Origin: a virus
Taxonomy: Duplodnaviria; Heunggongvirae; Uroviricota; Caudoviricetes
DNA length: 64,000 nucleotides
Virus record (IMG/VR): IMGVR_UViG_3300046499_000850
Direction: 5' to 3' (one strand)
Positions 2,238 to 57,226 of the stretch are shown here, one piece after another; the stretch's first letter is position 1, and every line of letters begins with the position of its first letter. The notes under the pieces were generated by a model that ran no database searches, had not been told where the DNA came from, and was given only the letters and a program-made list of their open reading frames with translations. Position numbers and translations under genes: made by a program.

Positions 2238-2270
2238 AGGCCGGTTCTCCGAATCGGCCTCGTTTGTGTT
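2238..2270 (+). terminator. probable intrinsic terminator
   Basis: GAGGCCGGTT-CTCC-GAATCGGCCTC followed by GTTTGTGTT. Confidence 0.55.
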
Positions 2271-2344
2271 GCAAAAGTTGCAGGGGTTAAAGAATATTGG
2301 AGAAACAAATTATCTAGTTAACCACAACACAACAGGAGGATATC

Positions 2345-3094
2345 ATGGCTACGAAGAAAGCAAAAGCGGCTAAGAAAAACACCGGCAAAATGGAAGTGGC
2401 TGAAGAAACACGTAACCAAATTTTCGACGGTAAGATGCCGGATGAAACAAAACCGTTGGTCGGCGAGATGGTGGTGATCATGGGTGTCCCGAAAAAGGAC
2501 AACTACAACGCGCGCACTATTATCCCAGCCATCGGCGAAGCCGTTCGCAACGCATACGACTTCATCGATGTGGTCAAGATCAAGGACGTGAATCTGCATG
2601 CCCCGCTGATGTTTGCGAAGAGCGAAGGGGATGAAGAGATGCTGGATTATATCAACAGCGGCGAAGGTAAGGCGTTGATGGCGTTGTTTATCCACCAAGA
2701 TCGCCAGCAGCGTCTGCGCGCTATAGACGAAGAAGACAAAAATTTCGACGAGATGTCGCCTGAAGAACAACAGCGCATGATCGAACGCGTACGCCATTTG
2801 CGCAAAGAATCCAACGAAGCGGCCGAGAAGCGCCGTTTGGAAGCCGTTGAGCACGCTTTCGAAACCGCCCAGAAATGGTCGACCGGTACCGACCTGACGC
2901 CGCGTGAACGCGTCCACGGTGCTGTACGTGACCTCTACAGCCGCTATGGCGAAACCCGTGGCGCTGATGCAGCCGGACGACCAATGGAAGTCGATCCCGG
3001 TCGGGATTATGACAAGCACTTCGACACGCACTTCGTCGAGGACATCAAGGCACGCTCGATTCGCGCTGCCAAAGACCTGTTTGGTCAGAAGTGA
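2345..3094 (+). CDS. AAKDLFG-family paralog 1 (249 aa)
   Basis: AGGAGG RBS; FETAQKW..DLTPRERVHGAVRDLY ... IKARSIRAAKDLFGQK. Confidence 0.85.
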   Translation: MATKKAKAAKKNTGKMEVAEETRNQIFDGKMPDETKPLVGEMVVIMGVPKKDNYNARTIIPAIGEAVRNAYDFIDVVKIKDVNLHAPLMFAKSEGDEEMLDYINSGEGKALMALFIHQDRQQRLRAIDEEDKNFDEMSPEEQQRMIERVRHLRKESNEAAEKRRLEAVEHAFETAQKWSTGTDLTPRERVHGAVRDLYSRYGETRGADAAGRPMEVDPGRDYDKHFDTHFVEDIKARSIRAAKDLFGQK

Positions 3095-3103
3095 GGAGTC
3101 ACC

Positions 3104-3826
3104 ATGGAATTTGAAAATAACGAACGCGGGCCACGTGCGGTCATTACGGTCTCGGGAATTCCGAAGGATTCCGACCCGGTACGGTTGATGCGGGTTCTCG
3201 ACGATATTTCCGAGAGCGTCTACGAAAAACTCGAAAGCGTCGAGATCGGCATGGTTACCAATGTGCCGGACGAAATTTTGCCGACAGGCTTGATGAGCCC
3301 GGAAGACGCTGAGGCGCTGAAGGAACTGCCGGGCTTTGGTCCCGGCCGTTTGCAACTGCACCTGAAAGCGCAGGTGGCGTCGGGCTTGATTTTCGCTGCC
3401 ACCATGATGGCTGGCGACGAAGCTGCTGGATTGGCATGGGAAAGCAAGTCGGAGGAAGAGAAGGAGGCGATCCATGAACACAATCGCCAGCGTTCGGAAC
3501 ACTACGAGCGAGCAGCTGTCCGGGAAATGCAAGACAAGCGCACCGCAGAACTGCGCCAAGCGTTTGATATCGCCAACCACTGGGCTGCCGAACCGGACCT
3601 CACGCCAATGGAACGCTGTCACGGTGTGGCGCACGATCTGTACAAGATCTACGGAGTGGATGCCAAAGAGTTCGATTTTGGTGGCACGAAATTCATTCCG
3701 GACAGCATGCGCAAAGCTTACGACATCAGTGCAGGTCAAGCTTACGCCCGGCACTACGATACCCATCTGAGCGAACAGATCAAGGAACGCAAGCTGCGCG
3801 CCGCCAAAGACTTATTCGGGGGTTAA
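3104..3826 (+). CDS. AAKDLFG-family paralog 2 (240 aa)
   Basis: GAGGAG RBS; FDIANHW..DLTPMERCHGVAHDLY ... IKERKLRAAKDLFGG. Confidence 0.85.
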   Translation: MEFENNERGPRAVITVSGIPKDSDPVRLMRVLDDISESVYEKLESVEIGMVTNVPDEILPTGLMSPEDAEALKELPGFGPGRLQLHLKAQVASGLIFAATMMAGDEAAGLAWESKSEEEKEAIHEHNRQRSEHYERAAVREMQDKRTAELRQAFDIANHWAAEPDLTPMERCHGVAHDLYKIYGVDAKEFDFGGTKFIPDSMRKAYDISAGQAYARHYDTHLSEQIKERKLRAAKDLFGG

Positions 3827-3828
3827 GT

Positions 3829-4491
3829 ATGAAAACTGGTAAAGGTAAGAAAGAGCAACAAGAGATCCATGTTCGAGGACGTACTTTCATCGTCGACTAT
3901 TTCAATGAACATGGCGGATTTATCAGTTCCGCTGAATTTACCCAAGCACTCGAAGAAGCGATCAAGATGGGTGACCAGATGAACATGGGTCATGTCAACG
4001 GCGTGTCTTTTAACCGCTTAGGTCAGAAGTTCGATTACCGTGAAGTAACGACTGAAGAAGATATGGACAATTACGTGGCCGCGAACTTGTTGACCAGTTT
4101 CATGGGTGATTTGGACTCACTCTCTGGTTTGTCAAACGCCGCCACGCTCACCAAAGATTTTGGTCAAATTTACACCAAGATCCGGGAGAAAGAACTGTCG
4201 CCTGAAGAAGGCGCGCGGCAGATGAACGACCTCATCGCGCTTGCGCGGCAAGAACAGCATCAAACGCAGCAGCAGCGTTTCTTCGATACCGCCAAGAAGT
4301 GGGCTGAGAAACCGAACCTGAGCGTGGTGGAGGTGGCTCATGGTGTCGCGTACGATGCTTACCGCATCGCGCATCCCGAAGAACCAGAAGTCATGGCGCA
4401 GCAAAGCTACGGGCTGCGCTATGATAACGAATACGGTAAAGCTATCAAAGCCAGAACGGTTCGTGCAGCAAAAGATTTGTTCGGTACGTAA
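3829..4491 (+). CDS. AAKDLFG-family paralog 3 (220 aa)
   Basis: FDTAKKW..NLSVVEVAHGVAYDAY ... IKARTVRAAKDLFGT. Confidence 0.85.
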   Translation: MKTGKGKKEQQEIHVRGRTFIVDYFNEHGGFISSAEFTQALEEAIKMGDQMNMGHVNGVSFNRLGQKFDYREVTTEEDMDNYVAANLLTSFMGDLDSLSGLSNAATLTKDFGQIYTKIREKELSPEEGARQMNDLIALARQEQHQTQQQRFFDTAKKWAEKPNLSVVEVAHGVAYDAYRIAHPEEPEVMAQQSYGLRYDNEYGKAIKARTVRAAKDLFGT

Positions 4492-4501
4492 GGGGAAGGC
4501 G

Positions 4502-5620
4502 ATGGCGAATAATTACGAAGAAGTCGTCGGGGTCATCAAGGTCAAACTGGTGACCCCGGTCATCCGAGCACTGTTTGGATGTTACAATCTGAATGAGAAA
4601 TACCCCGGTAATGGTGAAGCCTATATTGCACGCGGCGAGTTCTTGGAACAATACGCTTCGTGGGAAAATATGGTCAAGCCGTTGGAAGATCTCTGCACGT
4701 TCCTCAAAGTTCCATTTGAGTCGAGTATGATGCAAGAACCTTGGATCGCGCAAGACTTGTCGAACCTGCTGACAAATCTCTTCACCCATTTTGGTACCAT
4801 GGGTACTGACAAAGCTGCGGAGTACGTCAATTTTCTTACGGATGTTGATCCCTACGAGACGCCTGAGCTGTTGTGGTTGTATGAAATCGCTAAGCTGATG
4901 GATGACGGTCACGGTTTATCGGCTTACCAAGTCGACGCAGCTTACTATTGCGACAAACCGCGTTTGGGGGAATTCGGCGGCTGGGGCGAATACCATAGCA
5001 ACACGTACTCCGCACATATCTCTTCGCACATGGCGCGGGTTCGTTCAGCGGAGGTTGAGAGAATGTTGGTGGAAAAAGACTACACCGGCATCGGCAGTTA
5101 CATGGGTGCACAGTTCGCCAATGTCATCCACGGCATCACCGACCCGTATGCACGCCAGCAAGTCACTCAGGCGGTGGTCCACAACCTCAGTAACGTTTAT
5201 AAACCAATCCCGCAAGGAGAACCTGCCACCAACGACTCCGCTCCAGCCAACGCGTATGACAATACCCGCGTGTTAACTGCGGGTGAGCAGCGCAAGCTCA
5301 TGGCGGATGCGTTGTACCATACCGCCAACACCTGGGCGCATAACGAAAACTACGATCCGGTCACACGGGTCTTCAACGCGGTGCGGGATGCGGCGCAGTT
5401 GTTCGAGTTCGGTGACGACCATAACGTACCGCCAATGCGATTAATCCCGCAGCCGTTTGTCGAACCTGTAATGGAAACGGAAACCCAACAACAGTGGCTT
5501 CTTCACACGCCGATGCCGTCCGCTACCCAGGCGTCAAGCATCGTGCGTTCGTTCGATACGCTCGTGGAAACGCTGGGTACGCGTCGCGCAGAAGCCGCCA
5601 AGAAAATGTTCGGGACGTAA
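4502..5620 (+). CDS. AAKDLFG-family paralog 4 (372 aa; start moved from 4340)
   Basis: GGGGAAGG RBS before ATG 4502 (MANNYEE); YHTANTW..NYDPVTRVFNAVRDA ... RRAEAAKKMFGT. Confidence 0.8.
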   Translation: MANNYEEVVGVIKVKLVTPVIRALFGCYNLNEKYPGNGEAYIARGEFLEQYASWENMVKPLEDLCTFLKVPFESSMMQEPWIAQDLSNLLTNLFTHFGTMGTDKAAEYVNFLTDVDPYETPELLWLYEIAKLMDDGHGLSAYQVDAAYYCDKPRLGEFGGWGEYHSNTYSAHISSHMARVRSAEVERMLVEKDYTGIGSYMGAQFANVIHGITDPYARQQVTQAVVHNLSNVYKPIPQGEPATNDSAPANAYDNTRVLTAGEQRKLMADALYHTANTWAHNENYDPVTRVFNAVRDAAQLFEFGDDHNVPPMRLIPQPFVEPVMETETQQQWLLHTPMPSATQASSIVRSFDTLVETLGTRRAEAAKKMFGT

Positions 5621-5631
5621 AAGGAAACAAC

Positions 5632-6438
5632 ATGGAAGACAAAAAACAACATCGACAATTTTTCACCGATCCCAAGTATCGGGGAGATATCGAAACCTGT
5701 GCACGCTACGAAATTTCGCATCAGAAGGAACAGGCAGCCAAACCGACGAAACATTTTGATCCCGAGGATAATCAAAAGAAGTGGTACCATCCTGCTATCG
5801 ACCGGGCAGACATCGTCGCTCTGGCTGTCAAAGCAGAGTTGAATGGTCGTAGTGGCGTGGATTTGGATTTCGATGATCCTGAGCTCAGCCATGAGATCAT
5901 CGACACCATGGCTGAGATCGTCCGCCAAGGCATGGGTACCCACTTCTACGAAGGTATCTCGACCATCGAACTACCCGCCAAGGAACGGGAGTGGCCGGAA
6001 TCCCAACCGTTCACCGAAAACCCCGACGGTGGCTTTTACACCATGGGCCAGGTGCGCAAGCAGCTCTTTGATAAACTCATCGACAAGGCGCTCCACCACG
6101 GCCAAGAACCGGGGAACTACACCCCCACTGAACGTTGCCTGCGCACCGTGCGCAGCGTGATCGACGTGATCGATGGTGGTGAAGGAAACCGGCCGGGCGG
6201 TGAAGGGTTGCCGCTGATGCAGTTCATACTCTCGCCCCACCCGTCGTTCGACGAATCGCGGGAAGAAAAGAACCTGCCACGGTACGACAACAGCATACCG
6301 CTGGATGAAGGGTTGTTGCCACCGAGCGATTACCAGACTGGTATGGTCAAAGCGTTCGACCGCCATTTCGACAACCGCTTCGAATCCAACATCAAGGAGC
6401 GCTCGCTGCGCGCCGCCAGAGAGTTATTCGGAGGATAA
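5632..6438 (+). CDS. AAKDLFG-family paralog 5 (268 aa; start moved from 5494)
   Basis: AAGGA RBS before ATG 5632 (MEDKKQ); NYTPTERCLRTVRSVI ... IKERSLRAARELFGG. Confidence 0.8.
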   Translation: MEDKKQHRQFFTDPKYRGDIETCARYEISHQKEQAAKPTKHFDPEDNQKKWYHPAIDRADIVALAVKAELNGRSGVDLDFDDPELSHEIIDTMAEIVRQGMGTHFYEGISTIELPAKEREWPESQPFTENPDGGFYTMGQVRKQLFDKLIDKALHHGQEPGNYTPTERCLRTVRSVIDVIDGGEGNRPGGEGLPLMQFILSPHPSFDESREEKNLPRYDNSIPLDEGLLPPSDYQTGMVKAFDRHFDNRFESNIKERSLRAARELFGG

Positions 6439-7266
6439 ATGCCATTGCCAAAAAGCACACCCCGCCCAAAGCCCGACTTCAATCAACCGCGTTATGTCAA
6501 CGCAGTTGCTGCTATTGATGATGTTAATAACCTAGCGCGACAAGACATCGTGTACGATCAATGGCCAATCGACGATCCATACCGTGACACCGCGCTTTGC
6601 GCAGTGCAAAGTATTTACACGGTGGGCAATGTCGATTTGAATAAGATGTTGGACACGTTGCCGATTGAAGAAAAGCACAATCTTATCGACACCATGGCCG
6701 CCGTGGTGGAACTCAAAGTTGAGCACATCAACTCGGCTTATGACAATGTTTACGTCATTGGCTCCGACTCGCTTGACTTTGAAAGCAAAGGAAAAGAAGT
6801 CCCGTATATCGAAAACCCACTCAAGGAACGGCATTTCATTCCCCGTATGACGCCGTATGAGCAGATCCAAACGATCGCCACCAACGCTCATTTAATCGCC
6901 CATAACTGGGCTAACCGGCAGGATGAGGGGTTAGGGGTTGAGGAACGGGTGATGGGGGCTGTACACGGTGTGCTAGGAATGTTCCAAAACGGGTTTAATG
7001 ACCAAGTGCCGGCATTCCAGCTCATTCCGCTCGATCCTGAAACGGATCGAGGATGTATCAACCAGGTTTATCGGGACGGCGTGCCGACCGATGCAGACTG
7101 GAATTATGGGCAGCCAATGGGACTGACTTACAAGAGTACGTCCTATGCTGATGATCCAAGCAGCCCACCTGGTTCACTAACCTGCCGCTTCGAAGAACAG
7201 TATGAAAATACCCGTGGTCGTTTCCGTACTGCGGCTCAAGACCTCTTTGGTCATGGAGGATATTAA
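6439..7266 (+). CDS. AAKDLFG-family paralog 6 (275 aa)
   Basis: GGAGG RBS; IAHNW...LGVEERVMGAVHGVL ... RGRFRTAAQDLFGHGGY. Confidence 0.8.
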   Translation: MPLPKSTPRPKPDFNQPRYVNAVAAIDDVNNLARQDIVYDQWPIDDPYRDTALCAVQSIYTVGNVDLNKMLDTLPIEEKHNLIDTMAAVVELKVEHINSAYDNVYVIGSDSLDFESKGKEVPYIENPLKERHFIPRMTPYEQIQTIATNAHLIAHNWANRQDEGLGVEERVMGAVHGVLGMFQNGFNDQVPAFQLIPLDPETDRGCINQVYRDGVPTDADWNYGQPMGLTYKSTSYADDPSSPPGSLTCRFEEQYENTRGRFRTAAQDLFGHGGY

Positions 7267-7844
7267 TGTCCCGCAAGGACGGCAAGCTGGACTACCATGC
7301 CCGGCGCGTGTTAGACAGCAATCCCGAGTTCTTTGGTACGCCAGAAACTTGGGACCCGAAACGCAGACGACAACAGGAGGACAAGATGGCGAAAGGTATC
7401 CTGAGCATCGACGATGTCGGTCGTGACAACCCGTACGAGGACATCCCCACGCTGACCAAAGAAGAAGCATTGACGGTCGTCGCTGAGCGCGCTTACAACC
7501 AAGCGTTGTTGCTGTGGGGTGAAGGTGTGCAGCACCACCGCTTAACCATCAACGACCGTATCGCTGGGGCGGTGTACTCCACGTTCGAAATGCTGCAAAA
7601 CGGCGTGGAAGGGTTGATGCCGGCATTCGATTTGCTACCTGTGGCGTTACCGCATTTTGTCCCTTCTGTTTACGTTGAAAGGGGTGAGAACGAAATCCAA
7701 GCCCGCTGGACAGAGGACCCCATTTCGTTGTCCGGTATGGGAGACGATGTAATCACCATGACCAGCGTGTTCTCGGACGTCTACGATCGCTACAAAGATC
7801 GCCTAGCTGCCAGCGCCCGGGATCTGTTCCAACCATACGACTGA
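7266..7844 (+). CDS. AAKDLFG-family paralog 7 (192 aa)
   Basis: TAATG overlap; LTINDRIAGAVYSTFEML ... KDRLAASARDLFQPYD. Confidence 0.8.
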   Translation: MSRKDGKLDYHARRVLDSNPEFFGTPETWDPKRRRQQEDKMAKGILSIDDVGRDNPYEDIPTLTKEEALTVVAERAYNQALLLWGEGVQHHRLTINDRIAGAVYSTFEMLQNGVEGLMPAFDLLPVALPHFVPSVYVERGENEIQARWTEDPISLSGMGDDVITMTSVFSDVYDRYKDRLAASARDLFQPYD

Positions 7845-7932
7845 GGGGGGCGCTGTGAAGAAGCAGGAAGATAACAACAAACCGGGCGACTACCGCAAAG
7901 AGAAAGAAGTATGGTAACCGACAGGAGGCATT

Positions 7933-8802
7933 ATGCCACGCGATGATGGGTATGACCCAAAGAAGAACTTCAATCCACAAATCCAAGAGCAACTCAACAA
8001 AGAACAAATCGAGGAACTGATAGAAACGGCGGCTAAGAAAGCCGTGGCACAAGTATTCAAAGAGCACGGGCTGGGTAACCCGTACGAACAACCTGCGGTC
8101 GACCCCAACGCACCACGGGCGTATACGTCCGAAGAGGTCACCGAGCAGGTGATGGAACAAATCTGCCACGACATTCACTATTGGCAAACTCAGCCGAATT
8201 GCGGGTCTATGGAAAATCGTGTGGAAGGTGTAATCCATTCGACACTGGCGATGCTCGATGGTTGTAAGCTTCGGTTGCCGGCATTCGATCTGGTACCTGA
8301 CGTGCATGAAGACGATAAGGATTATCATATCGAAAACGGTGAAAACTATTACGATTCTAAATCGGTGGTGTCAACATCGTTGCATGAGCTTCTTTATCCG
8401 ACGCTTCGAAAGTTGTATCCGGAAAAAATACCCCCGCTCGGTCGGACAGAGCTAAACCCAAAAGAAATGCGGGAAACGTTCACCCAAGCTGCATATGACA
8501 TCGCGTGGAAGACTGCCTTGCATGTCCCTGATAAAAGAGAAGCGTGTGAAGGTACGGCATACCAAATCATGCAACTTCTCGATGGTGAGCATCCCGATTA
8601 CGCTGACACACCACCATTCATGGTGTTTGCGGCGCCGACGGAAGAATTCAACCGCGCACAACAGCTGTCCGGCAATCCGACGTGGGATAGCAGTATCCCT
8701 CTGAATCGTAAACCGCCGTATGGAGCCACGGACTCGTTGGTCGACACGTACGAAACCATTCGTAACCGCGACAAGCAAGCCAAACGTGATCTATTCAAAT
8801 AA
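7933..8802 (+). CDS. AAKDLFG-family paralog 8 (289 aa, two copies of the core helical motif)
   Basis: AGGAGG RBS; IHYW..GSMENRVEGVIHSTLAMLDG and AYDIAW..KREACEGTAYQIMQLLDG; ends RDKQAKRDLFK. Confidence 0.8.
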   Translation: MPRDDGYDPKKNFNPQIQEQLNKEQIEELIETAAKKAVAQVFKEHGLGNPYEQPAVDPNAPRAYTSEEVTEQVMEQICHDIHYWQTQPNCGSMENRVEGVIHSTLAMLDGCKLRLPAFDLVPDVHEDDKDYHIENGENYYDSKSVVSTSLHELLYPTLRKLYPEKIPPLGRTELNPKEMRETFTQAAYDIAWKTALHVPDKREACEGTAYQIMQLLDGEHPDYADTPPFMVFAAPTEEFNRAQQLSGNPTWDSSIPLNRKPPYGATDSLVDTYETIRNRDKQAKRDLFK

Positions 8803-8811
8803 GGAGAAAAC

Positions 8812-9219
8812 ATGCAAACGATTGATCCGAACAAATTGTTGCTGCCGCTCGAAGTGACTGTCGAGGGTATGAAGCTTAGTCCCTTCCAAGGAACGCGAAT
8901 TGCTTCGACTGCACACGAGGCAATCGAGTACGGTTTTGGTCTGATGGAACTACGCGCGCGGGCACCATACGAAGATGCCGCCCCAGAAGTGCGGACGTCA
9001 TGGGAAAAGCATACCGACGAATTCATTGCGCGGTCCCAGCCATCCACCTACCCCAGCCTGGCGCCAGAGCAAGCGGCTTTGCTCGAACAAATCACCAACA
9101 CACTTCAACTTCAGCGTAATCGCGAACGCGGCTCGTTACATCTCAGCCTCGACACCATGGTGACGGTGTGGGTGGAGGTGAAGAAAGACGTAACCAAGTA
9201 TTTGGAATCGCAAACATAA
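8812..9219 (+). CDS. hypothetical protein (135 aa)
   Basis: AAGGAG RBS; followed by a hairpin. Confidence 0.75.
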   Translation: MQTIDPNKLLLPLEVTVEGMKLSPFQGTRIASTAHEAIEYGFGLMELRARAPYEDAAPEVRTSWEKHTDEFIARSQPSTYPSLAPEQAALLEQITNTLQLQRNRERGSLHLSLDTMVTVWVEVKKDVTKYLESQT

Positions 9220-9224
9220 CAGGC

Positions 9225-9267
9225 CCCGGCCCGTAAGGGCTGGGACTATGCTATATTTTCTTTTTTC
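9225..9267 (+). terminator. hairpin + CTATGC + T-tract
   Basis: CCCGGCCC-GTAA-GGGCTGGG, then ACTATGCTATATTTTCTTTTTT. Confidence 0.65.
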
Positions 9268-11259: not shown

Positions 11260-11640
11260 TAACGATATCACCCCAACGTAACTCACCGTGTCGCGTTGAG
11301 GGGAGAAGGTGTGACCAGGGAACTACAACAGAGGTAACTTCGGGAGAACTCACCTGCTGCGGCGGGGTTGGGCGATGGTCACGAACGGTACGGGTAGCGA
11401 GGACTACCAAGCTGTCATGAGGGATTTTCGGTCGAGCGTTACCGCGCGATTATCCGAGTGTGCAACCGCCAGAGGACTTGTTCTAAGAATAGGTTCTGTG
11501 GTGGGTGCATAGGGTTCATGTCTCTGTGTGCTTCTTCTTTCGCGGTGTGGGTTAGCCGGGTTTGTTGAGTTTTGTGCATGAATGCTGATTTCCTTAGTTT
11601 GACTTCCGCTCAGGTGCCTTCGGGCATCTGAGCCTTTTTT
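11259..11640 (+). ncRNA. putative ~380 nt structured non-coding RNA
   Basis: ORF-free, G/U-rich; helices visible by eye: CCCCAACG/CGTTG-A-GGG, GTGACC/GGTCAC, GGTAG/CTACC, CGGTA/TACCG, long imperfect stem ~11460-11510, TTCATG/CATGAA; ends in a UUCG terminator. Confidence 0.55.
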
Positions 11641-11648
11641 ATGCCGTC
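11608..11648 (+). terminator. strong intrinsic terminator + TATGCCGTC
   Basis: GCTCAGGTGCC-TTCG-GGCATCTGAGC-CTTTTTT-ATGCCGTC. Confidence 0.85.
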
Positions 11649-11708: not shown

Positions 11709-13184
11709 ATGATGAGAAAATTTTCCTATAAAGCGCCGGGAGTGCAAGCTTCTGTACCGGTACAGCTCTCCGTCGAAGAGGAAGCCATCGCAATCGATGA
11801 GAGCAACCAAACAGAACACGAGATCGAAGAGGAATCGGCGGACATCGATCAACTCGGCGACATTATCGTGACCATGGGTGACGTCCAAACCGTGGTCAGC
11901 AACACGCCGGAAATCCAACCAATCGACCAAGCCTTGGTGTCGGCGGTGGCTGATATGGCGGTGGCGGGCACAGACGCGAACCCAGAAGAACTGGTAACCG
12001 ATGTGCTGCCGAATAATGGCGTGAGCGCAGAAGGTTTCATCGATACGGTTTCCGCCAAACTCAAAGAGATCTGGAAGAAGATCAAAGAGCTGATTTCCAA
12101 GGCGTGGGAGAACATCAAACAGTTCTTCGGCTTTAACAAAACCAAACTCCAGGAAGCTGAGAAGAAGCTGGAGAAGGCAAAAGAGCAGTACGCTGAAGTC
12201 CAAAAAGCGCTCGAAGAAGACCCGGTCATCCAAGCTTACGTGGAACGCGATGGTATCACGCGAGCAGGTGACCACGTCATCACGAAACAGCAAGTTGAGG
12301 AGGCTAAAGCACGTCAAGAGCCCCAACAGCCGCCCGAAGCCAAGAAACCCAAACAGCCGCGTCCACCCCGTCGTATCGATTTCTGGGGCACGGCCGGCAA
12401 TCTCTCGATTGACGGCAAACTCGTCGAGCCGGAAAAGCTGGCGGGCGAAATCCGTCGTCTGACCGACGCTGTAGAGAAAGGTGTCTCGAAGATGCACGCC
12501 GGGTGGCCACAACTGTACGACAATGTCAAGCACAGTGCTGAATCCATGCACCGCTCGCTGAATGGCCAGCAATCGCAAGAAACCTACGACAGTTTCATGA
12601 AAACCTACAAAGAAGGCGGCGCCAAACAGAGTCAGATCTACGACAAGATCGTCCAATACGGCGGCTTCCAGCGAGAAGGTTCGGAAAAACACATGTTGGC
12701 TGACTTCGCGTTGCTCTACACATCGAAAGATTCGCATAGCAGTAACTGGAACGATTTCGATCTGTGGGTGGATATGGCCGGCAACGGCTACAACAATGTC
12801 CGCGCTGATGGCATTCGCGAAATCCCGCTCGACAATCTGCCGGAAGTGTTCGCTGCAGTCGATGCTGCTTTCGACGTCATTCGGAAGCTGGAGAAGGACA
12901 TGGGCTCCGACATGTCGATGAATAGTCACCGGAAGGCTGTTGAAGATGCGATGAATCGCCTGAGTGAATCCAAGCCCACCGCCCAAGACATCAAGAACGA
13001 ACCTGATGCACTGAAAGGTCTCAGCATGAGCGTGCTCACGGGCGCTGTGCAACAGATGGGTTTCTCGGTGTTCAACATGGCCAAGATCGGTCAAGCCATG
13101 GCCAAGGCCACGCTGGTGCTGACCAAGGTGGCTGATACCGCGTGCATGTACGCTGAACGTTCGCTCCGCCCGGCTTCGGAGTAA
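11709..13184 (+). CDS. phiKZ-like internal head (inner body/ejection-type) protein, 491 aa
   Basis: Acidic propeptide, SAE-G protease-type site, then amphipathic KLKEIWKKIKELISKAWENIKQFF; N-terminus paralogous to 61504..62916. Confidence 0.65.
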   Translation: MMRKFSYKAPGVQASVPVQLSVEEEAIAIDESNQTEHEIEEESADIDQLGDIIVTMGDVQTVVSNTPEIQPIDQALVSAVADMAVAGTDANPEELVTDVLPNNGVSAEGFIDTVSAKLKEIWKKIKELISKAWENIKQFFGFNKTKLQEAEKKLEKAKEQYAEVQKALEEDPVIQAYVERDGITRAGDHVITKQQVEEAKARQEPQQPPEAKKPKQPRPPRRIDFWGTAGNLSIDGKLVEPEKLAGEIRRLTDAVEKGVSKMHAGWPQLYDNVKHSAESMHRSLNGQQSQETYDSFMKTYKEGGAKQSQIYDKIVQYGGFQREGSEKHMLADFALLYTSKDSHSSNWNDFDLWVDMAGNGYNNVRADGIREIPLDNLPEVFAAVDAAFDVIRKLEKDMGSDMSMNSHRKAVEDAMNRLSESKPTAQDIKNEPDALKGLSMSVLTGAVQQMGFSVFNMAKIGQAMAKATLVLTKVADTACMYAERSLRPASE

Positions 13185-16237: not shown

Positions 16238-17803
16238 TTACAAGATGTCGCCGTCAAACGACCAAACAGGGTTTTCACGCGGGGAACCAATCGGGCCAGC
16301 GCCCGGCTTACGCAGACCCGTATCCGGGCCATCCACGTCATCCAGCAGATTGCCCACTTCATGTAGCGGCCAAGCGCAATAGCGGTCAATCATCGGGGTC
16401 TGACGGGTCTTACGGTGTTTACCCCGTTGCAGGGTCAAGTACGGTTTGCCGTTCACATACTCGATGTGTTGGAACAGTTCCAAATCGACTTCTTGGTCCA
16501 GACGTTGCGAGCCGTCGTAATAGCCTTTACCTGGCAAGATCTTGACGAAGTTGTTTTGACCGTCCCGGTACAACTTCTTGGCATCCGACGAGAGCTGGTG
16601 CGGGGTGATGAACAGGATGTGGCGCGGCGCGCAGAAGTTACGGATACGACGGAACATGTCCCGGATATCCGAACCAGCCGTGGTCATGATACAACCCGTG
16701 GTCGGCAGCATCGCCAAGTAATCGACAAACAACGCGATCACTTCGAACCCTTCGGACTCCAACTGCAATACTTTGTTTTGCACATCCAGATAGGTCCACT
16801 CCGACGGATTGACGCGCATCATGCGGATATGGAAACCCGTGGCCGTCATCCGAGGGATGAAATACGCCGCCAGTTCTTCATCGCTCAGGATCGTCAGATC
16901 CGGTAGGGCTTTGATCTTGTCGTGCTTGTGTTCGTTGCAGTAGAACTGCTCGTACAAGAATTGGAAGTTCTCACGCAGGCTATCTTCCAACGAGATCCGC
17001 AGCAGCAACGGTTTCTTGGTCGGGTCGCGCAGCACCGGGGTGTTGTACACCGCGATATGGCGAAAGTCCGTGAGGTTACCGCCAGTCTTGAAGTTGTGTG
17101 GTAACGCCGCTGGGCCGATCACCGCTTCACCGCGACGGTAGCCACCGTCAAGCATGCGGTTCTTGCCTTGCAAGCCGAGTTGCAAAATTGTGTTGCCTTC
17201 CTCGTTTTCTTTCACCGACTGGAACACTTCCCGCACTTCTTCTGGTTTACTAAAGTCGACTTCGTTCACCACGGCCGGGTCCTTCTCCAGCATGTTGGTG
17301 GTGTACGGTTCCAGCTTCTCGCGCAGTTCCATGGCGAAGGTGTTCATCGACTGGATCTTCGACTTGTTGAACTTGACCTTGCTGAACGCATCGACGATGA
17401 TGCGCTCGACTTCTTTGCTGCGGAAATAATTACGAATCTGACTACGTAAGTTGAGGCACGTGCGTTTCAGTGCGTTCTCCGACAACTCTGGCATGATGCC
17501 GCCTTGCAACGCTTCGTAGGTGATGTCGTCGTCACCGCAGTTCATCTTCAGGCGTTGCAGCAGTTCATTCGGTTCGTATTGATGGTCATACGGCAGACAC
17601 GCCATGTAGTAGGCGGTGTCTTTTAAATTCATCAACACTTCGGTCGAGCGATCGCGAATATCCCGGCCAAGACTCATCTCCGGCGCCTTGGTTTCTTCGA
17701 CGACTTTCAGTACATCTTCTGCTGCGTTATTGGTATGACCAACTTGCTGGCTTTCACGGTAAAGAAGTGTGATCGAATTGACCAACAAAAGTTTAGTGTC
17801 CAT
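16238..17803 (-). CDS. dnaB: DnaB-like replicative helicase (phiKZ gp118-like)
   Basis: Degenerate Walker A (ALPHNFKTGG), LLRISLED, FVDYL Walker B, FITPHQLS, LTLQRGKHR; lies upstream of the capsid gene as in phiKZ-like phages. Confidence 0.8.
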   Translation of the reverse strand: MDTKLLLVNSITLLYRESQQVGHTNNAAEDVLKVVEETKAPEMSLGRDIRDRSTEVLMNLKDTAYYMACLPYDHQYEPNELLQRLKMNCGDDDITYEALQGGIMPELSENALKRTCLNLRSQIRNYFRSKEVERIIVDAFSKVKFNKSKIQSMNTFAMELREKLEPYTTNMLEKDPAVVNEVDFSKPEEVREVFQSVKENEEGNTILQLGLQGKNRMLDGGYRRGEAVIGPAALPHNFKTGGNLTDFRHIAVYNTPVLRDPTKKPLLLRISLEDSLRENFQFLYEQFYCNEHKHDKIKALPDLTILSDEELAAYFIPRMTATGFHIRMMRVNPSEWTYLDVQNKVLQLESEGFEVIALFVDYLAMLPTTGCIMTTAGSDIRDMFRRIRNFCAPRHILFITPHQLSSDAKKLYRDGQNNFVKILPGKGYYDGSQRLDQEVDLELFQHIEYVNGKPYLTLQRGKHRKTRQTPMIDRYCAWPLHEVGNLLDDVDGPDTGLRKPGAGPIGSPRENPVWSFDGDIL

Positions 17804-18554: not shown

Positions 18555-18656
18555 TTATTCTCTGACTAGTTCGGTAAATAATTACTAATAGTTTGAGCTG
18601 AATAAGCCCCAAAGCAAATTCTTTCCCTTACTCCTGATAAAGGATTGGTTACAACC

Positions 18657-20852
18657 ATGAAAAGCATCATCTTCAACAACAGCGCGAACTCGCGTGGCCT
18701 GCCGGGCTTCCTGGATCGCACCCTCGCGGAAGTCGAAACCTTCGCTCACTCGGCTCAAGGCGCTGACGTCGCCAAGAACATGATCTCGCTGGAATCGATC
18801 TCGGGCAACACGCTCGCCATCGAAAACCTGCAGCACACGGCTTCCAGCCTGCTGAACAAGATCGAAACCATCGCTACCGAAGCCTGGGGCGTCGAAGACA
18901 GCAAGACCGGCCGTCCGACCCACAGCTACAACCAACAGCAACTGCAAGCCGCCACCATCGCCGCGATGCTGGGCCACGACCTGGGCGCCGCCGTCAAGGC
19001 TCCGACCAAGCCGGCCTTCTCGACCGAAGGCATCACCGTCTGCGAATCCGGCGACCGTACCCCGTACGAGCGTCGTGCTGCAAACGAAGCCTACGACGAT
19101 CAATCGACCTCGACCTCGATCGCCTTCTCGGTGGCCTACAACCTGGAATGCGCACGTCAATCGGAACTGGCCGAAACCCTGTTCCCGACCGTCGTGATCC
19201 CGCCGAACGAAGCCGGCCTGTTCATGTCGATCGACCTGGCCCTGCTGCAAGACGACGCGAACCGCCAGATCAGCGGCGCCGTCACGAACTTCCACCGTTA
19301 CAACGTCATCCGCGCACAGACCTACCCGGAACTGCTGCACAACGATGCATCCGACCTGGTGCCAGTGCTGCGTGACGAATCGAAGCAGAACTTCGTCGAC
19401 ACCACCCTGGTGCAGCCGATCGACCGCAAGATGAACAACGGTGAAGTGATCACCACCACCGCGCTGAAAGTCGGCGCCAAGTTCGACCTGCTGTCGCTGT
19501 CGCACACCGACGCCATGGTCGCCAAGGGCCTGCCGAACCAGACCGACTCGATCGACACCGGCGTGTTCCTGGAAAACATCTACATCGCGCTGAAATCGGC
19601 CGATGGCTCCAAGACCGAAGTCATCCGCTTCAACGTCAAGGAACTGCCGTACGCTGGTTACTACCCGGCGACCCAGGGCGACTACCGCGACCAGCAACTG
19701 TCGTTCGAAAACAGTGGCCTGCTGGTTTCGGGCAGCACCACCAAGGAAGACGGCACCGTCGCAACCCTGCTGGACCCGATCAAGACCGGCAGCTACGAAG
19801 TGCGCCTGTCGGTGGCTCTGTCCGGCCGCCTGAACCTGCAATTCGGTAACGGCTCGGTCTACGGCCCGGCACCGGAAGTCGCAACTGTCGCCAAGAACGG
19901 CGTGCAAGTCGCTACCGACTCCGGTGGTGGCAAAACCATCGCTGACATCTTCAAGGGCGCCGAAGTCATCGGTTACACCCTGGCAGCGAAGCGTTCGAAC
20001 CTGAACCGTCGTCTGCGTGGCCAGACCATGGACACCAACACCAAGCGCCAGTTCTACCCGCTGAACCTGCTGGCTCCGGTCACCATCGTTCGTCCGCACA
20101 GCGCCGGCGATGTCAACGACGCACGTGACCTGTCGTTCCTGATCTTCACCACCAAGACCCGTTCGTCGATCGACGCCGTCGAAGTGCTGCAGAACCACGC
20201 TGCAACCATGAAGGCGATGCAAGGCCAGTTCCACATGCCTGGCGAGACGGTCGAGACCTTCGGCCTGGCTCGCTGGCTGCTGGACCCGTACTACGCGTAC
20301 GACAAGTACACCGCGCCGGACGTGGTGGACAGCCTGAAGTCGTCCGAGCGCAACGCGGACATCCGCGCTTCGCTGACCAACATGGTCCAGGACCACGTGT
20401 TCAAGATGTGGCAACTGTCGAGCTACGGCCCGGCATCGGCTTCGCAGAACGGTGGCGTCGGTCAGATCCCGACCGTCATCATCGCTTGCGATCCGCGCAT
20501 CGAACAGTACCTGAACATCCAGGGCGATCTGCGCCTGCTGGGTGACAAGTTCCCGGTCAAGGTCGTGTCCGACACGAACAAGAACCTGCGTGGCAAGATG
20601 TACATCACGTTCGGCAACATGGAAACCGCAGCGCAAGGCATCCCGAATGTCCTGCACTTCGGCACCACCATGTACCGTCCGGAAATGACCATCATCCTGC
20701 CGGTGAGCCGCGATGGCCAGACCTCGAAAGAAGTCACCGTGTCGCCGGCATTCCGCCACTTCGTCAACCTGCCGCTGCTGATCGAGATCGACGTGGAAGG
20801 TATCGAAGATGTGGTCAACGCCAAAGTCCCGGTCGTTCTGAAGAACGTCTAA
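18657..20852 (+). CDS. major capsid protein (phiKZ gp120-like), 731 aa
   Basis: Size; strong C-ending codon bias of a highly expressed gene; SLE-S/STE-G cleavage-type sites; AETLFPTVVI..NEAG and HFVNLPLLIEIDV.GI motifs; synteny. Confidence 0.85.
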   Translation: MKSIIFNNSANSRGLPGFLDRTLAEVETFAHSAQGADVAKNMISLESISGNTLAIENLQHTASSLLNKIETIATEAWGVEDSKTGRPTHSYNQQQLQAATIAAMLGHDLGAAVKAPTKPAFSTEGITVCESGDRTPYERRAANEAYDDQSTSTSIAFSVAYNLECARQSELAETLFPTVVIPPNEAGLFMSIDLALLQDDANRQISGAVTNFHRYNVIRAQTYPELLHNDASDLVPVLRDESKQNFVDTTLVQPIDRKMNNGEVITTTALKVGAKFDLLSLSHTDAMVAKGLPNQTDSIDTGVFLENIYIALKSADGSKTEVIRFNVKELPYAGYYPATQGDYRDQQLSFENSGLLVSGSTTKEDGTVATLLDPIKTGSYEVRLSVALSGRLNLQFGNGSVYGPAPEVATVAKNGVQVATDSGGGKTIADIFKGAEVIGYTLAAKRSNLNRRLRGQTMDTNTKRQFYPLNLLAPVTIVRPHSAGDVNDARDLSFLIFTTKTRSSIDAVEVLQNHAATMKAMQGQFHMPGETVETFGLARWLLDPYYAYDKYTAPDVVDSLKSSERNADIRASLTNMVQDHVFKMWQLSSYGPASASQNGGVGQIPTVIIACDPRIEQYLNIQGDLRLLGDKFPVKVVSDTNKNLRGKMYITFGNMETAAQGIPNVLHFGTTMYRPEMTIILPVSRDGQTSKEVTVSPAFRHFVNLPLLIEIDVEGIEDVVNAKVPVVLKNV

Positions 20853-20961: not shown

Positions 20962-21010
20962 CTTCCCTCTACCTTCGGGTAGGGGGAGGCTGCTTTATGC
21001 CGTCAAAAAT
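20962..21010 (+). terminator. terminator after the capsid gene + TATGCCGTC
   Basis: CTTCCCTCTACC-TTCG-GGTAGGGGGAGG...TTTATGCCGTC. Confidence 0.75.
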
Positions 21011-21574: not shown

Positions 21575-21576
21575 CC

Positions 21577-21622
21577 CAGCAGGGGCTGCGCGCCCCTGCT
21601 GTATGCCGTCAAAAAAAAAAAA
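21577..21622 (+). terminator. hairpin + TATGCCGTC + A12
   Basis: CAGCAGGGGC...GCCCCTGCTG-TATGCCGTC-AAAAAAAAAAAA. Confidence 0.65.
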
Positions 21623-57181: not shown

Positions 57182-57226
57182 GCGTCATAGCTCCCCCTCC
57201 CGCGTTGGGAGGGGGAGTATGCCGTC
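57182..57226. terminator. bidirectional palindromic terminator
   Basis: GCGTCATAG-CTCCCCCTCCC-GCGTT-GGGAGGGGGAG-TATGCCGTC. Confidence 0.75.

Follow-up and report, generated by a model that had tools for sequence, protein, structure and literature searches.

An array of eight old paralogs with a shared, putatively dimerising C-terminal domain in an uncultured phiKZ-like phage

We analysed a stretch of 64,000 nucleotides (hereafter the window) from the IMG/VR virus record IMGVR_UViG_3300046499_000850, in which eight consecutive plus-strand genes at positions 2345-8802 encode proteins with a common C-terminal domain, typically closed by a motif of the RAAKDLFG kind. The source is an uncultured, phiKZ-like phage of about 273 kb (the sequence cluster of gene 2 was placed on a contig of 273,341 bp). 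The genes of the array, together with a ninth gene that follows them, are listed below with their lengths in amino acids (aa).

Gene 1: 2345-3094, plus strand; 249 aa, short three-helix C-terminal domain at 2819-3091, end IRAAKDLFGQK, N-terminal module homologous to that of gene 2.
Gene 2: 3104-3826, plus strand; 240 aa, C-terminal domain at 3524-3823, end LRAAKDLFGG, the GG codons being the Shine-Dalgarno sequence of gene 3.
Gene 3: 3829-4491, plus strand; 220 aa, short C-terminal domain at 4243-4488, N-terminal region without detectable similarity to the others.
Gene 4: 4502-5620, plus strand; 372 aa, globular N-terminal domain of 258 aa, C-terminal domain at 5276-5617, end EAAKKMFGT.
Gene 5: 5632-6438, plus strand; 268 aa, C-terminal domain at 6040-6435, GG codons being the Shine-Dalgarno sequence of gene 6, N-terminal module probably in common with gene 6.
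Gene 6: 6439-7266, plus strand; 275 aa, C-terminal domain at 6850-7263, the partner chain in the complex prediction described below.
Gene 7: 7266-7844, plus strand; 192 aa, a 63-aa leader and then a nearly bare domain at 7455-7841, which was modelled at a predicted local distance difference test score (pLDDT) of 92.
Gene 8: 7933-8802, plus strand; 289 aa, tandem domain copies at 8125-8451 and 8455-8799.
Ninth gene: 8812-9219, plus strand; 135 aa, not a member of the family, found at the same position in three metagenomic contigs (L001, L002 and L003).

Two of the open reading frames (ORFs), as originally listed, were over-long, and their starts were moved to the ATG codons at 4502 and 5632, each of which follows a Shine-Dalgarno sequence just past the preceding stop codon. 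A Shine-Dalgarno-like sequence is located 6-12 nucleotides (nt) 5' of every array gene, in line with the claim of an earlier note on this DNA that each gene has its own ribosome-binding site. The spacing between the genes is -1 to 11 nt, with the exception of 88 nt before gene 8, and the eight genes form one tightly packed operon together with the unrelated ninth gene. The copy of the ninth gene in L003 carries a precomputed match to DUF8308, and no match to its copy in the window was obtained in a Pfam scan.

A hidden Markov model (HMM) of the C-terminal parts matched all eight genes with E-values from 1e-21 to 4e-40, and no further ORF in the window. Gene 8 was matched twice, at residues 65-173 and 175-289; its first copy is of the 'short' type described below and ends in LHELLY, not in AAKDLF. 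The observation from which we started, i.e. eight tandem genes with one shared C-terminal domain, doubled in the last gene, was thus recovered in full, and the terminal motifs quoted for the individual genes proved correct. It is real and clearly non-random.

When 50,697 cultured-phage records were searched at the nucleotide level and by tblastn, no match was found for the whole region, gene 2 or gene 6; relatives were found only for the first domain copy of gene 8. Orthologues of gene 2 are present in metagenomes at 44-61% identity, and the array occurs in the same order on the three metagenomic contigs mentioned above, with eight members in L001, ten in L002 and at least six in L003. In L001, small genes and a phiKZ_IP gene come after the array, as in the window, and in L003 a gene for an SNF2 helicase is located 3' of it. 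Every one of the eight paralogs has full-length orthologues of its own in several 50%-identity clusters. The N- and C-terminal halves are similarly conserved between orthologues, and in those of gene 4 the N-terminal part is even better kept (60% and 48%, as compared to 39% and 37% in the C-terminal domain). From this, it can be concluded that the paralogs are old and that each of them has been kept by selection, rather than being recent redundant copies. The divergence that had been thought to rise along the array was not observed: identity to gene 1 stays flat at 19-27%. What changes along the array is the domain architecture, as an insert composed of a strand and a hairpin is present in genes 4-8 and absent from genes 1-3.

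The shared part is a domain of 85-140 aa without a Pfam model, and scans of all eight proteins with Pfam, NCBIfam and PADLOC gave no credible match. When a profile of 27 C-terminal domains was searched against 1.84 billion representative sequences, it detected 210 clusters at E<=1e-3, of which 63 reached E<=1e-10. Two types can be distinguished among them. The 'long' type carries the pattern Y-D..R-x-R..A-A-K-D-L-F at 0-25 residues from the C-terminus, whereas members of the 'short' type (105-125 aa) are marked by a G-E-N-W/Y-Y hairpin and terminate close to L-H-E-x-F. Many members are stand-alone proteins (105-180 aa overall, many of the long type being 125-180 aa), so that the domain constitutes the whole protein there. 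Runs of two to four adjacent stand-alone genes of the long type, encoding 135-190 aa, were also noticed on two further contigs (L015 518-1417 and L016 258-3393), which indicates that tandem expansion of the family is not confined to the clade of the window. The array represents the expansion, within one lineage, of a phage domain that is widespread and uncharacterised.

As for cultured phages, the first domain copy of gene 8 shares 46% identity with a hypothetical protein (100 aa) of the Citrobacter siphophage vB_CfrS_K1M and is related to proteins of Salmonella phage seszw as well; these stand-alone homologues of siphophages sit among small non-structural genes of no assigned function. The same copy matched the PHROG families 27353, 11061 and 29367, all annotated as 'unknown function', with E-values of 5.9e-10, 1.5e-9 and 1.1e-3, respectively, and we confirmed that phiKZ gp257 belongs to PHROG 27353 and gp258 to PHROG 11061. 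Genes 1-7 gave no direct match to these three models; they are tied to the phiKZ proteins by the family HMM and by an hhalign comparison of the family profile with gp257 (84%, E 7e-6). Shared by gp257, gp258 and the array are a T-x-E-E motif in helix 1, a helix 2 ending in L-D-G and a P-x-F-x-L-x-P strand, motifs of the core that are visible in the alignments for genes 4-8. The two phiKZ genes are adjacent, but they are two as opposed to eight, they encode the short type (with a GENYW hairpin and an L-H-E-x-F-like ending) without the Y-D..R-x-R..A-A-K-D-L-F helix, and unlike the array genes they have no large N-terminal modules. They belong to a block of small genes without assigned function, far from the head genes. 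In the literature, we found gp257 and gp258 only as detections in tables from size-exclusion chromatography coupled to mass spectrometry (SEC-MS) of infected cells, according to which both are made during infection; the 'gp257' of PMC10245766 is the DNA ligase of PhiPA3 and not a member of the family. The family profile had no match in SPN3US or FLC9 and a single match in RP12, at an unrelated position. A degenerate DNA pattern for RAAKDLFG hit 54 loci in IMG/VR, the true family members among which came from two jumbo-phage contigs only, the rest being chance matches; in its exact form, the long-type motif is rare in this collection.

The domain of gene 7 (residues 58-192) was modelled with AlphaFold2 from an alignment of 67 homologues, with a mean pLDDT of 92.1 and a predicted template modelling score (pTM) of 0.81. 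In the domain numbering, which is used from here on, the model has helices at 8-27 and 38-55, short strands at 57-66, a hairpin at 77-90 and a helix at 108-131 that ends in A-R-D-L-F. The domain is thus predicted to be a three-helix bundle with a P-x-F-x-L-x-P strand and a beta-hairpin, present in a helices-only version in genes 1-3. In the full-length model of gene 2, pLDDT was 88-96 over most of the C-terminal domain including the tail and 73-80 in the linker between helices; two long helices (80-113 and 117-162 of the protein) lead into the domain. Conservation is spread across the whole domain and is not limited to its tail: P62 and F131 do not vary, only L or M occurs at position 130, and the most conserved other columns include A127 (91%), W91 (81%), R122 (78%), A23 (78%), Y116 (76%), P95 (76%) and P68 (74%). 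No characterised fold was detected with either model in Foldseek searches of the PDB, wide VIA-align searches of the PDB, or searches of BFVD, AFDB clusters and the ESM Atlas. The best match in the PDB (Z 5.7) was to generic helical membrane subunits, and the only likely relatives were uncharacterised proteins of 105-130 aa. A profile search against the sequences of the PDB found nothing.

How two such domains may come together was addressed by a controlled complex prediction, in which the domain of gene 7 and that of gene 6, each with its own alignment, were modelled in three runs. The pair scored 0.83, as compared to 0.00 for the best control. The mark applied is reached by 58 of 80 solved complexes and by 2 of 110 mismatched pairs, a calibration that is rough here as own alignments were used. 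The runs agreed in at least 94% of the contacts, and the partner chain had a pLDDT of at least 78. The contacts of the lowest predicted error join residues 62-68 of one chain to 58-64 of the other in antiparallel orientation, i.e. the P-x-F-x-L-x-P segments of both. The second helices of both chains also pack on each other, with contributions to the interface from helix 1 and the first half of helix 3, while tail residues 120-131 are outside the interface as listed. Such a strand-to-strand dimer would account for the strongest conserved motif outside the tail. Judged from these models, the most likely role of the domain is that of a dimerisation scaffold, and both the tandem copies of gene 8 and its orthologues and the long helices entering the domain of gene 2 are consistent with this.

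The position of the tail in the same models bears on another proposal. The earlier note had taken the shared ending for a free address or docking tag delivering different N-terminal cargoes, and had named burial of the tail in the domain core of predicted structures as the finding that would speak against it. As far as the tools used allow, that is where the tail appears to be. It makes up the last two turns of the 24-residue helix 3, has a pLDDT of 81-94 and is continuous with the fold. The conserved apolar positions of this helix (L108, F112, Y116, L123, A127 and L130/F131) form a stripe with i/i+3-4 spacing, the likely signature of a face that packs on helices 1 and 2. To judge from the directions of the helices, the tail should adjoin the conserved residues A23, W27, L36, E40 and C42 and so lie at the tip of the bundle.

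The residues behind the motif seem to have a further explanation. Across the family, F is followed by G in 37%, by D in 19% and by S in 12% of members, and in the array the codons for G-G, G-E or K-E often coincide with the Shine-Dalgarno sequence of the next gene, as in genes 2, 5 and 6 of the window and in several genes of L001 and L002. Residues following L-F are therefore set in part by translation signals. The Shine-Dalgarno sequences within the last codons of the upstream paralog (G-G, G-H-G-G-Y) are located at 3812-3826, 6424-6438 and 7249-7266 in the window, with equivalents in L001 and L002; the array genes are probably translationally coupled.

These results also bear on the suggested resemblance to the membrane-targeting sequence of MinD, according to which the tail would be a basic amphipathic C-terminal helix that ends in LFG(G) and inserts into the inner membrane or an early-infection vesicle. 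The likeness is there to the eye, since the MinD sequence is likewise a short C-terminal helix with basic residues ending in L-F-G(-G), and in the array a basic residue precedes the hydrophobic pair. However, the tail of MinD is disordered until it is bound to the membrane, whereas that of the array is modelled as the end of a folded bundle (helix 108-131, pLDDT above 80), with a face rich in alanine (A126 and A127) and acidic at position 129. The glycines double as Shine-Dalgarno sequences in genes 2, 5 and 6 and are not conserved beyond the array, so the LFGG appearance results in part from the tight packing of the genes. Moreover, the equivalent of the motif is internal in the first copy of gene 8 and in phiKZ gp257, and elsewhere up to 25 residues follow it, with 10-25 extra residues in some homologues. 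We consider membrane targeting of this kind very improbable.

According to the model that we favour, and which we hold to be somewhat more probable than its negation on the strength of the predictions above, the array comprises old paralogs built on a folded dimerisation scaffold, the tail being the end of the fold. Two domain copies would pair their P-x-F-x-L-x-P strands antiparallel, with helices 1 and 2 of both packed on each other. In this way, the products of the array would make up a set of homo- or heterodimers presenting different N-terminal modules, and gene 8 would represent a covalently fused pseudo-dimer. The RAAKDLF tail would be the buried end of helix 3 and would close the bundle far from the dimer interface.

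Several points weigh against this model. First, burial of the tail is read from helix periodicity and pLDDT, not from coordinates. Second, R120, R122, K/R128 and D129 are strongly conserved, and F131 is invariant, in paralogs that are otherwise 15-30% identical. This conservation exceeds what the end of a bundle would strictly need and would suit a shared binding site; the four polar residues may form salt bridges with E10, E40 or D54, or else a binding surface. Third, both chains of the predicted complex are paralogs with near-identical alignments, so the result says that the family can pair and does not tell homodimers from heterodimers, and own alignments lie outside the calibration of the complex tool. 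Fourth, genes 1 and 3 have no P-x-F-x-L-x-P strand and gene 2 retains only K-F-I-P of it, so these three proteins may pair differently or not at all. Finally, none of the searches by structure or sequence led to a characterised protein, so that function can be judged from context only.

The second of these points also speaks for docking, in which the C-terminal motif, either by itself or as the distal tip of the bundle, would recruit eight different cargoes to a common partner, for example the prohead core, the capsid interior, the shell of the phage nucleus or a host hub. F131 is invariant, A127 is conserved in 91%, and R120, R122, K128 and D129 are conserved in the paralogs and in distant homologues. 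In nearly all members of the long type, 0-25 residues separate the motif from the C-terminus. Being outside the predicted dimer interface, the motif could be available for binding, and the N-terminal modules differ while each is conserved. The same concept, i.e. diverse cargo domains with one short conserved terminal motif, is realised by the capsid targeting sequence (CTS) of T4 internal proteins and by the cargo-loading peptides of encapsulins, which are short, carried on flexible linkers and transplantable. In the array, however, the motif is modelled with high confidence as a continuous part of helix 3 on its hydrophobic stripe, and it is continuous with a conserved domain of 85-140 aa that also exists without cargo, many members being the bare domain. 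In the short subfamily the LHE-L-F equivalent is internal or followed by long extensions (first copy of gene 8, gp257). The ORF at L001 10732-11364, located at the position of gene 3, has kept the helical core and lost the AAKDLF tail, ending in the acidic ..EEEDDGE; this tail-less orthologue is nevertheless retained in its array. We therefore regard docking through the motif as unlikely.

The regions preceding the domain were compared by profile-profile alignment (hhalign with alignments of orthologues). Homology was found between the N-terminal modules of genes 1 and 2 (98.5%, E 3e-15 over 113 columns) and is probable for those of genes 5 and 6 (67%, E 5e-5 over 109 columns). No similarity was found by this comparison for the other pairs, genes 3 and 4 being unique, and in genes 7 and 8 only about 63 residues precede the domain. 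The statement that all N-termini are unrelated thus fails for genes 1 and 2, and probably for genes 5 and 6, and stands for the remaining pairs compared; a resemblance of the gene 3 N-terminus to those of genes 1 and 2, suspected by eye, was not borne out by hhalign. What remains of the modular effector array proposed earlier is one shared C-terminal module joined to several different, conserved N-terminal modules in a jumbo phage, without the free address tag. For gene 6, the quality of the ESM Atlas model was insufficient for conclusions on its N-terminal module.

The N-terminal part of gene 4 (residues 1-258) forms a globular domain, homologues of which occur as proteins on their own (218-233 aa). 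These are 31-36% identical to it over about 90% of the length with E-values down to 2e-32, and their ESM Atlas models superpose with it at TM-scores of 0.8-0.9. One cluster of these homologues includes WP_148829120 of Xanthomonas sontii, encoded in the region of an integrative conjugative element between genes for DUF3085, DUF3577 and DUF3275; type IV secretion genes adjoin it on one of the two contigs. The Xanthomonas counterpart of the gene 4 module (4502-5275) occupies positions 8001-8687 of contigs L013 and L014, where a DUF6094 gene is also among its neighbours. These Xanthomonas proteins do not have the C-terminal domain, and the likeness covers the N-terminal module of gene 4 only.

As for the surroundings of the array, the following features delimit the operon or have a bearing on its role.

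2238-2344, plus strand: 5' border of the operon, with a hairpin (2238-2262), a degenerate TATG-type element and the leader CAAAAGTTGC..GGTTAAAGAATAT..ATCTAGTTAACC.
9220-9265, plus strand: 3' border of the operon, a GC-rich hairpin (about 9220-9245) followed by ACTATGCTATATTTTCTTTTTT.
11709-13181: phiKZ_IP internal head protein (PF12699, E 4.5e-8), the sole PF12699 gene.
18645-20849: PhiKZ-type major capsid protein (PF25620, E 7e-160).

The best match of the capsid protein among cultured phages is to Burkholderia phage FLC9 (39% identity), followed by the Ralstonia phages RP12 and RP31, and the phage is distant from all cultured phages. It also encodes a divergent DnaB-like helicase and an SNF2 helicase, and one of its proteins matches PHROG 2943 ('polymerase'). 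Directly 5' of the array, a 92-aa protein encoded at 1951-2229 matches PF00786 (P21-Rho-binding/CRIB) with 24.2 bits, as compared to a Pfam cut-off of 21.3 (E 4e-5), as well as PHROGs 4910 and 7801. The CRIB match, of a eukaryote type in a phage, is probably spurious but odd.

The leader 5' of the array is conserved in L001 and L002. It is about 65 nt long, has the form CAAAAGTTGC-N4-GGTTAAAGAATAT...AAATTATCTAGTTAACC, and is located at 2263-2344 in the window, 9250-9326 in L001 and 9338-9375 in L002. Between phages with proteins of only about 55-60% identity, it is nearly unchanged, which points to a conserved regulatory element of RNA or DNA. The TATG-type element before the array is exact in L002, where the hairpin is joined to TATGCCGTC; it reads TATGTTGTC in L001 and is degenerate in the window (TTTGTGTTGC). 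Exact TATGCCGTC occurs five times on the plus strand of the window, and its 20 occurrences with one mismatch are not above chance (13 +/- 3). A hairpin with exact TATGCCGTC is present at gene boundaries at 1886-1917, 11608-11648, 20970-21004, 21575-21610 and 57190-57226, as well as in the relatives, at 16404 and 18865 of L001 and at 2537 and 9330 of L002. Such an element also precedes the phiKZ_IP gene, and none is found before the capsid gene. As TATG is the consensus of phiKZ late promoters (PMC4666361) and TATG elements often directly follow hairpins with T-runs, the hairpin with TATGCCGTC may be a combined terminator and promoter. We nevertheless dropped it as a proof of late transcription, since the array is preceded by a degenerate form and the capsid gene by none, and since the element may be part of terminators. 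A second recurrent promoter-like motif of the window, TATAATCAACAA, has no copy upstream of the array.

This setting brings up the possibility that the array proteins reside inside the head or are ejected from it, and that the shared domain serves for their incorporation into the prohead. Large families of head paralogs of variable size are documented in such phages, namely the PF12699 inner-body proteins (phiKZ gp93-97, gp162 and gp163) and family B of SPN3US (gp138-154 and others; PMC5694885); these, too, consist of tandem diverged paralogs in giant phages, varying in number and located near head genes. The distance from the array to the only phiKZ_IP gene, which lies downstream of it, is about 3 kb, and that to the major capsid gene is about 10 kb; L001 shows this synteny as well. 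Furthermore, the hairpin and TATG-type element before it resembles that before the phiKZ_IP gene, and the lack of a TATAATCAACAA copy upstream points in the same direction. However, no sequence relationship to either head family was found: none of the eight proteins matched PF12699 at E<=1, and the family profile found nothing in the whole SPN3US genome at the sensitivity of HMMER. The small-gene surroundings of gp257, gp258 and the siphophage homologues, described above, do not suggest a head role, and the TATG element may be part of a terminator. A consistent S/A/G-x-E protease motif at a fixed position was not seen, by eye only. Packaging of these proteins into the head is, in our view, possible though rather doubtful. 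Roughly, when cellular roles are compared irrespective of mechanism, intracellular host takeover or counter-defence receives the largest share of our expectation, a little short of even, proteins packaged in the head or ejected receive a somewhat smaller share, and all other roles the smallest.

A more far-reaching variant would combine pairing with docking. The array would then supply combinatorial heterodimers that pair N-terminal effector modules, and the bundle tip (W27, E40, R120, R122, A127, D129, L130 and F131) would dock all of them on one phage or host structure. This would amount to a new modular system of delivery or assembly in nucleus-forming phages, of which phiKZ gp257 and gp258 would be the minimal form. 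We regard this as a long shot.

Giant phages are rich in paralog arrays of unassigned function. The one described here defines a family without a Pfam model or solved structure, whose members occur in phiKZ, in small siphophages and in many metagenomic phages, and which now gains a testable property, i.e. predicted dimerisation via the conserved P-x-F-x-L-x-P strand. It also advises caution, as what resembles a sorting tag at the terminus of a protein can be the final part of its fold, shaped in part by the ribosome-binding site of the next gene. The link of the gene 4 N-terminal module to conjugative elements points to functions common to mobile elements that enter cells. If the paralogs do pair with each other, the array would show a phage building many two-part proteins from one scaffold.

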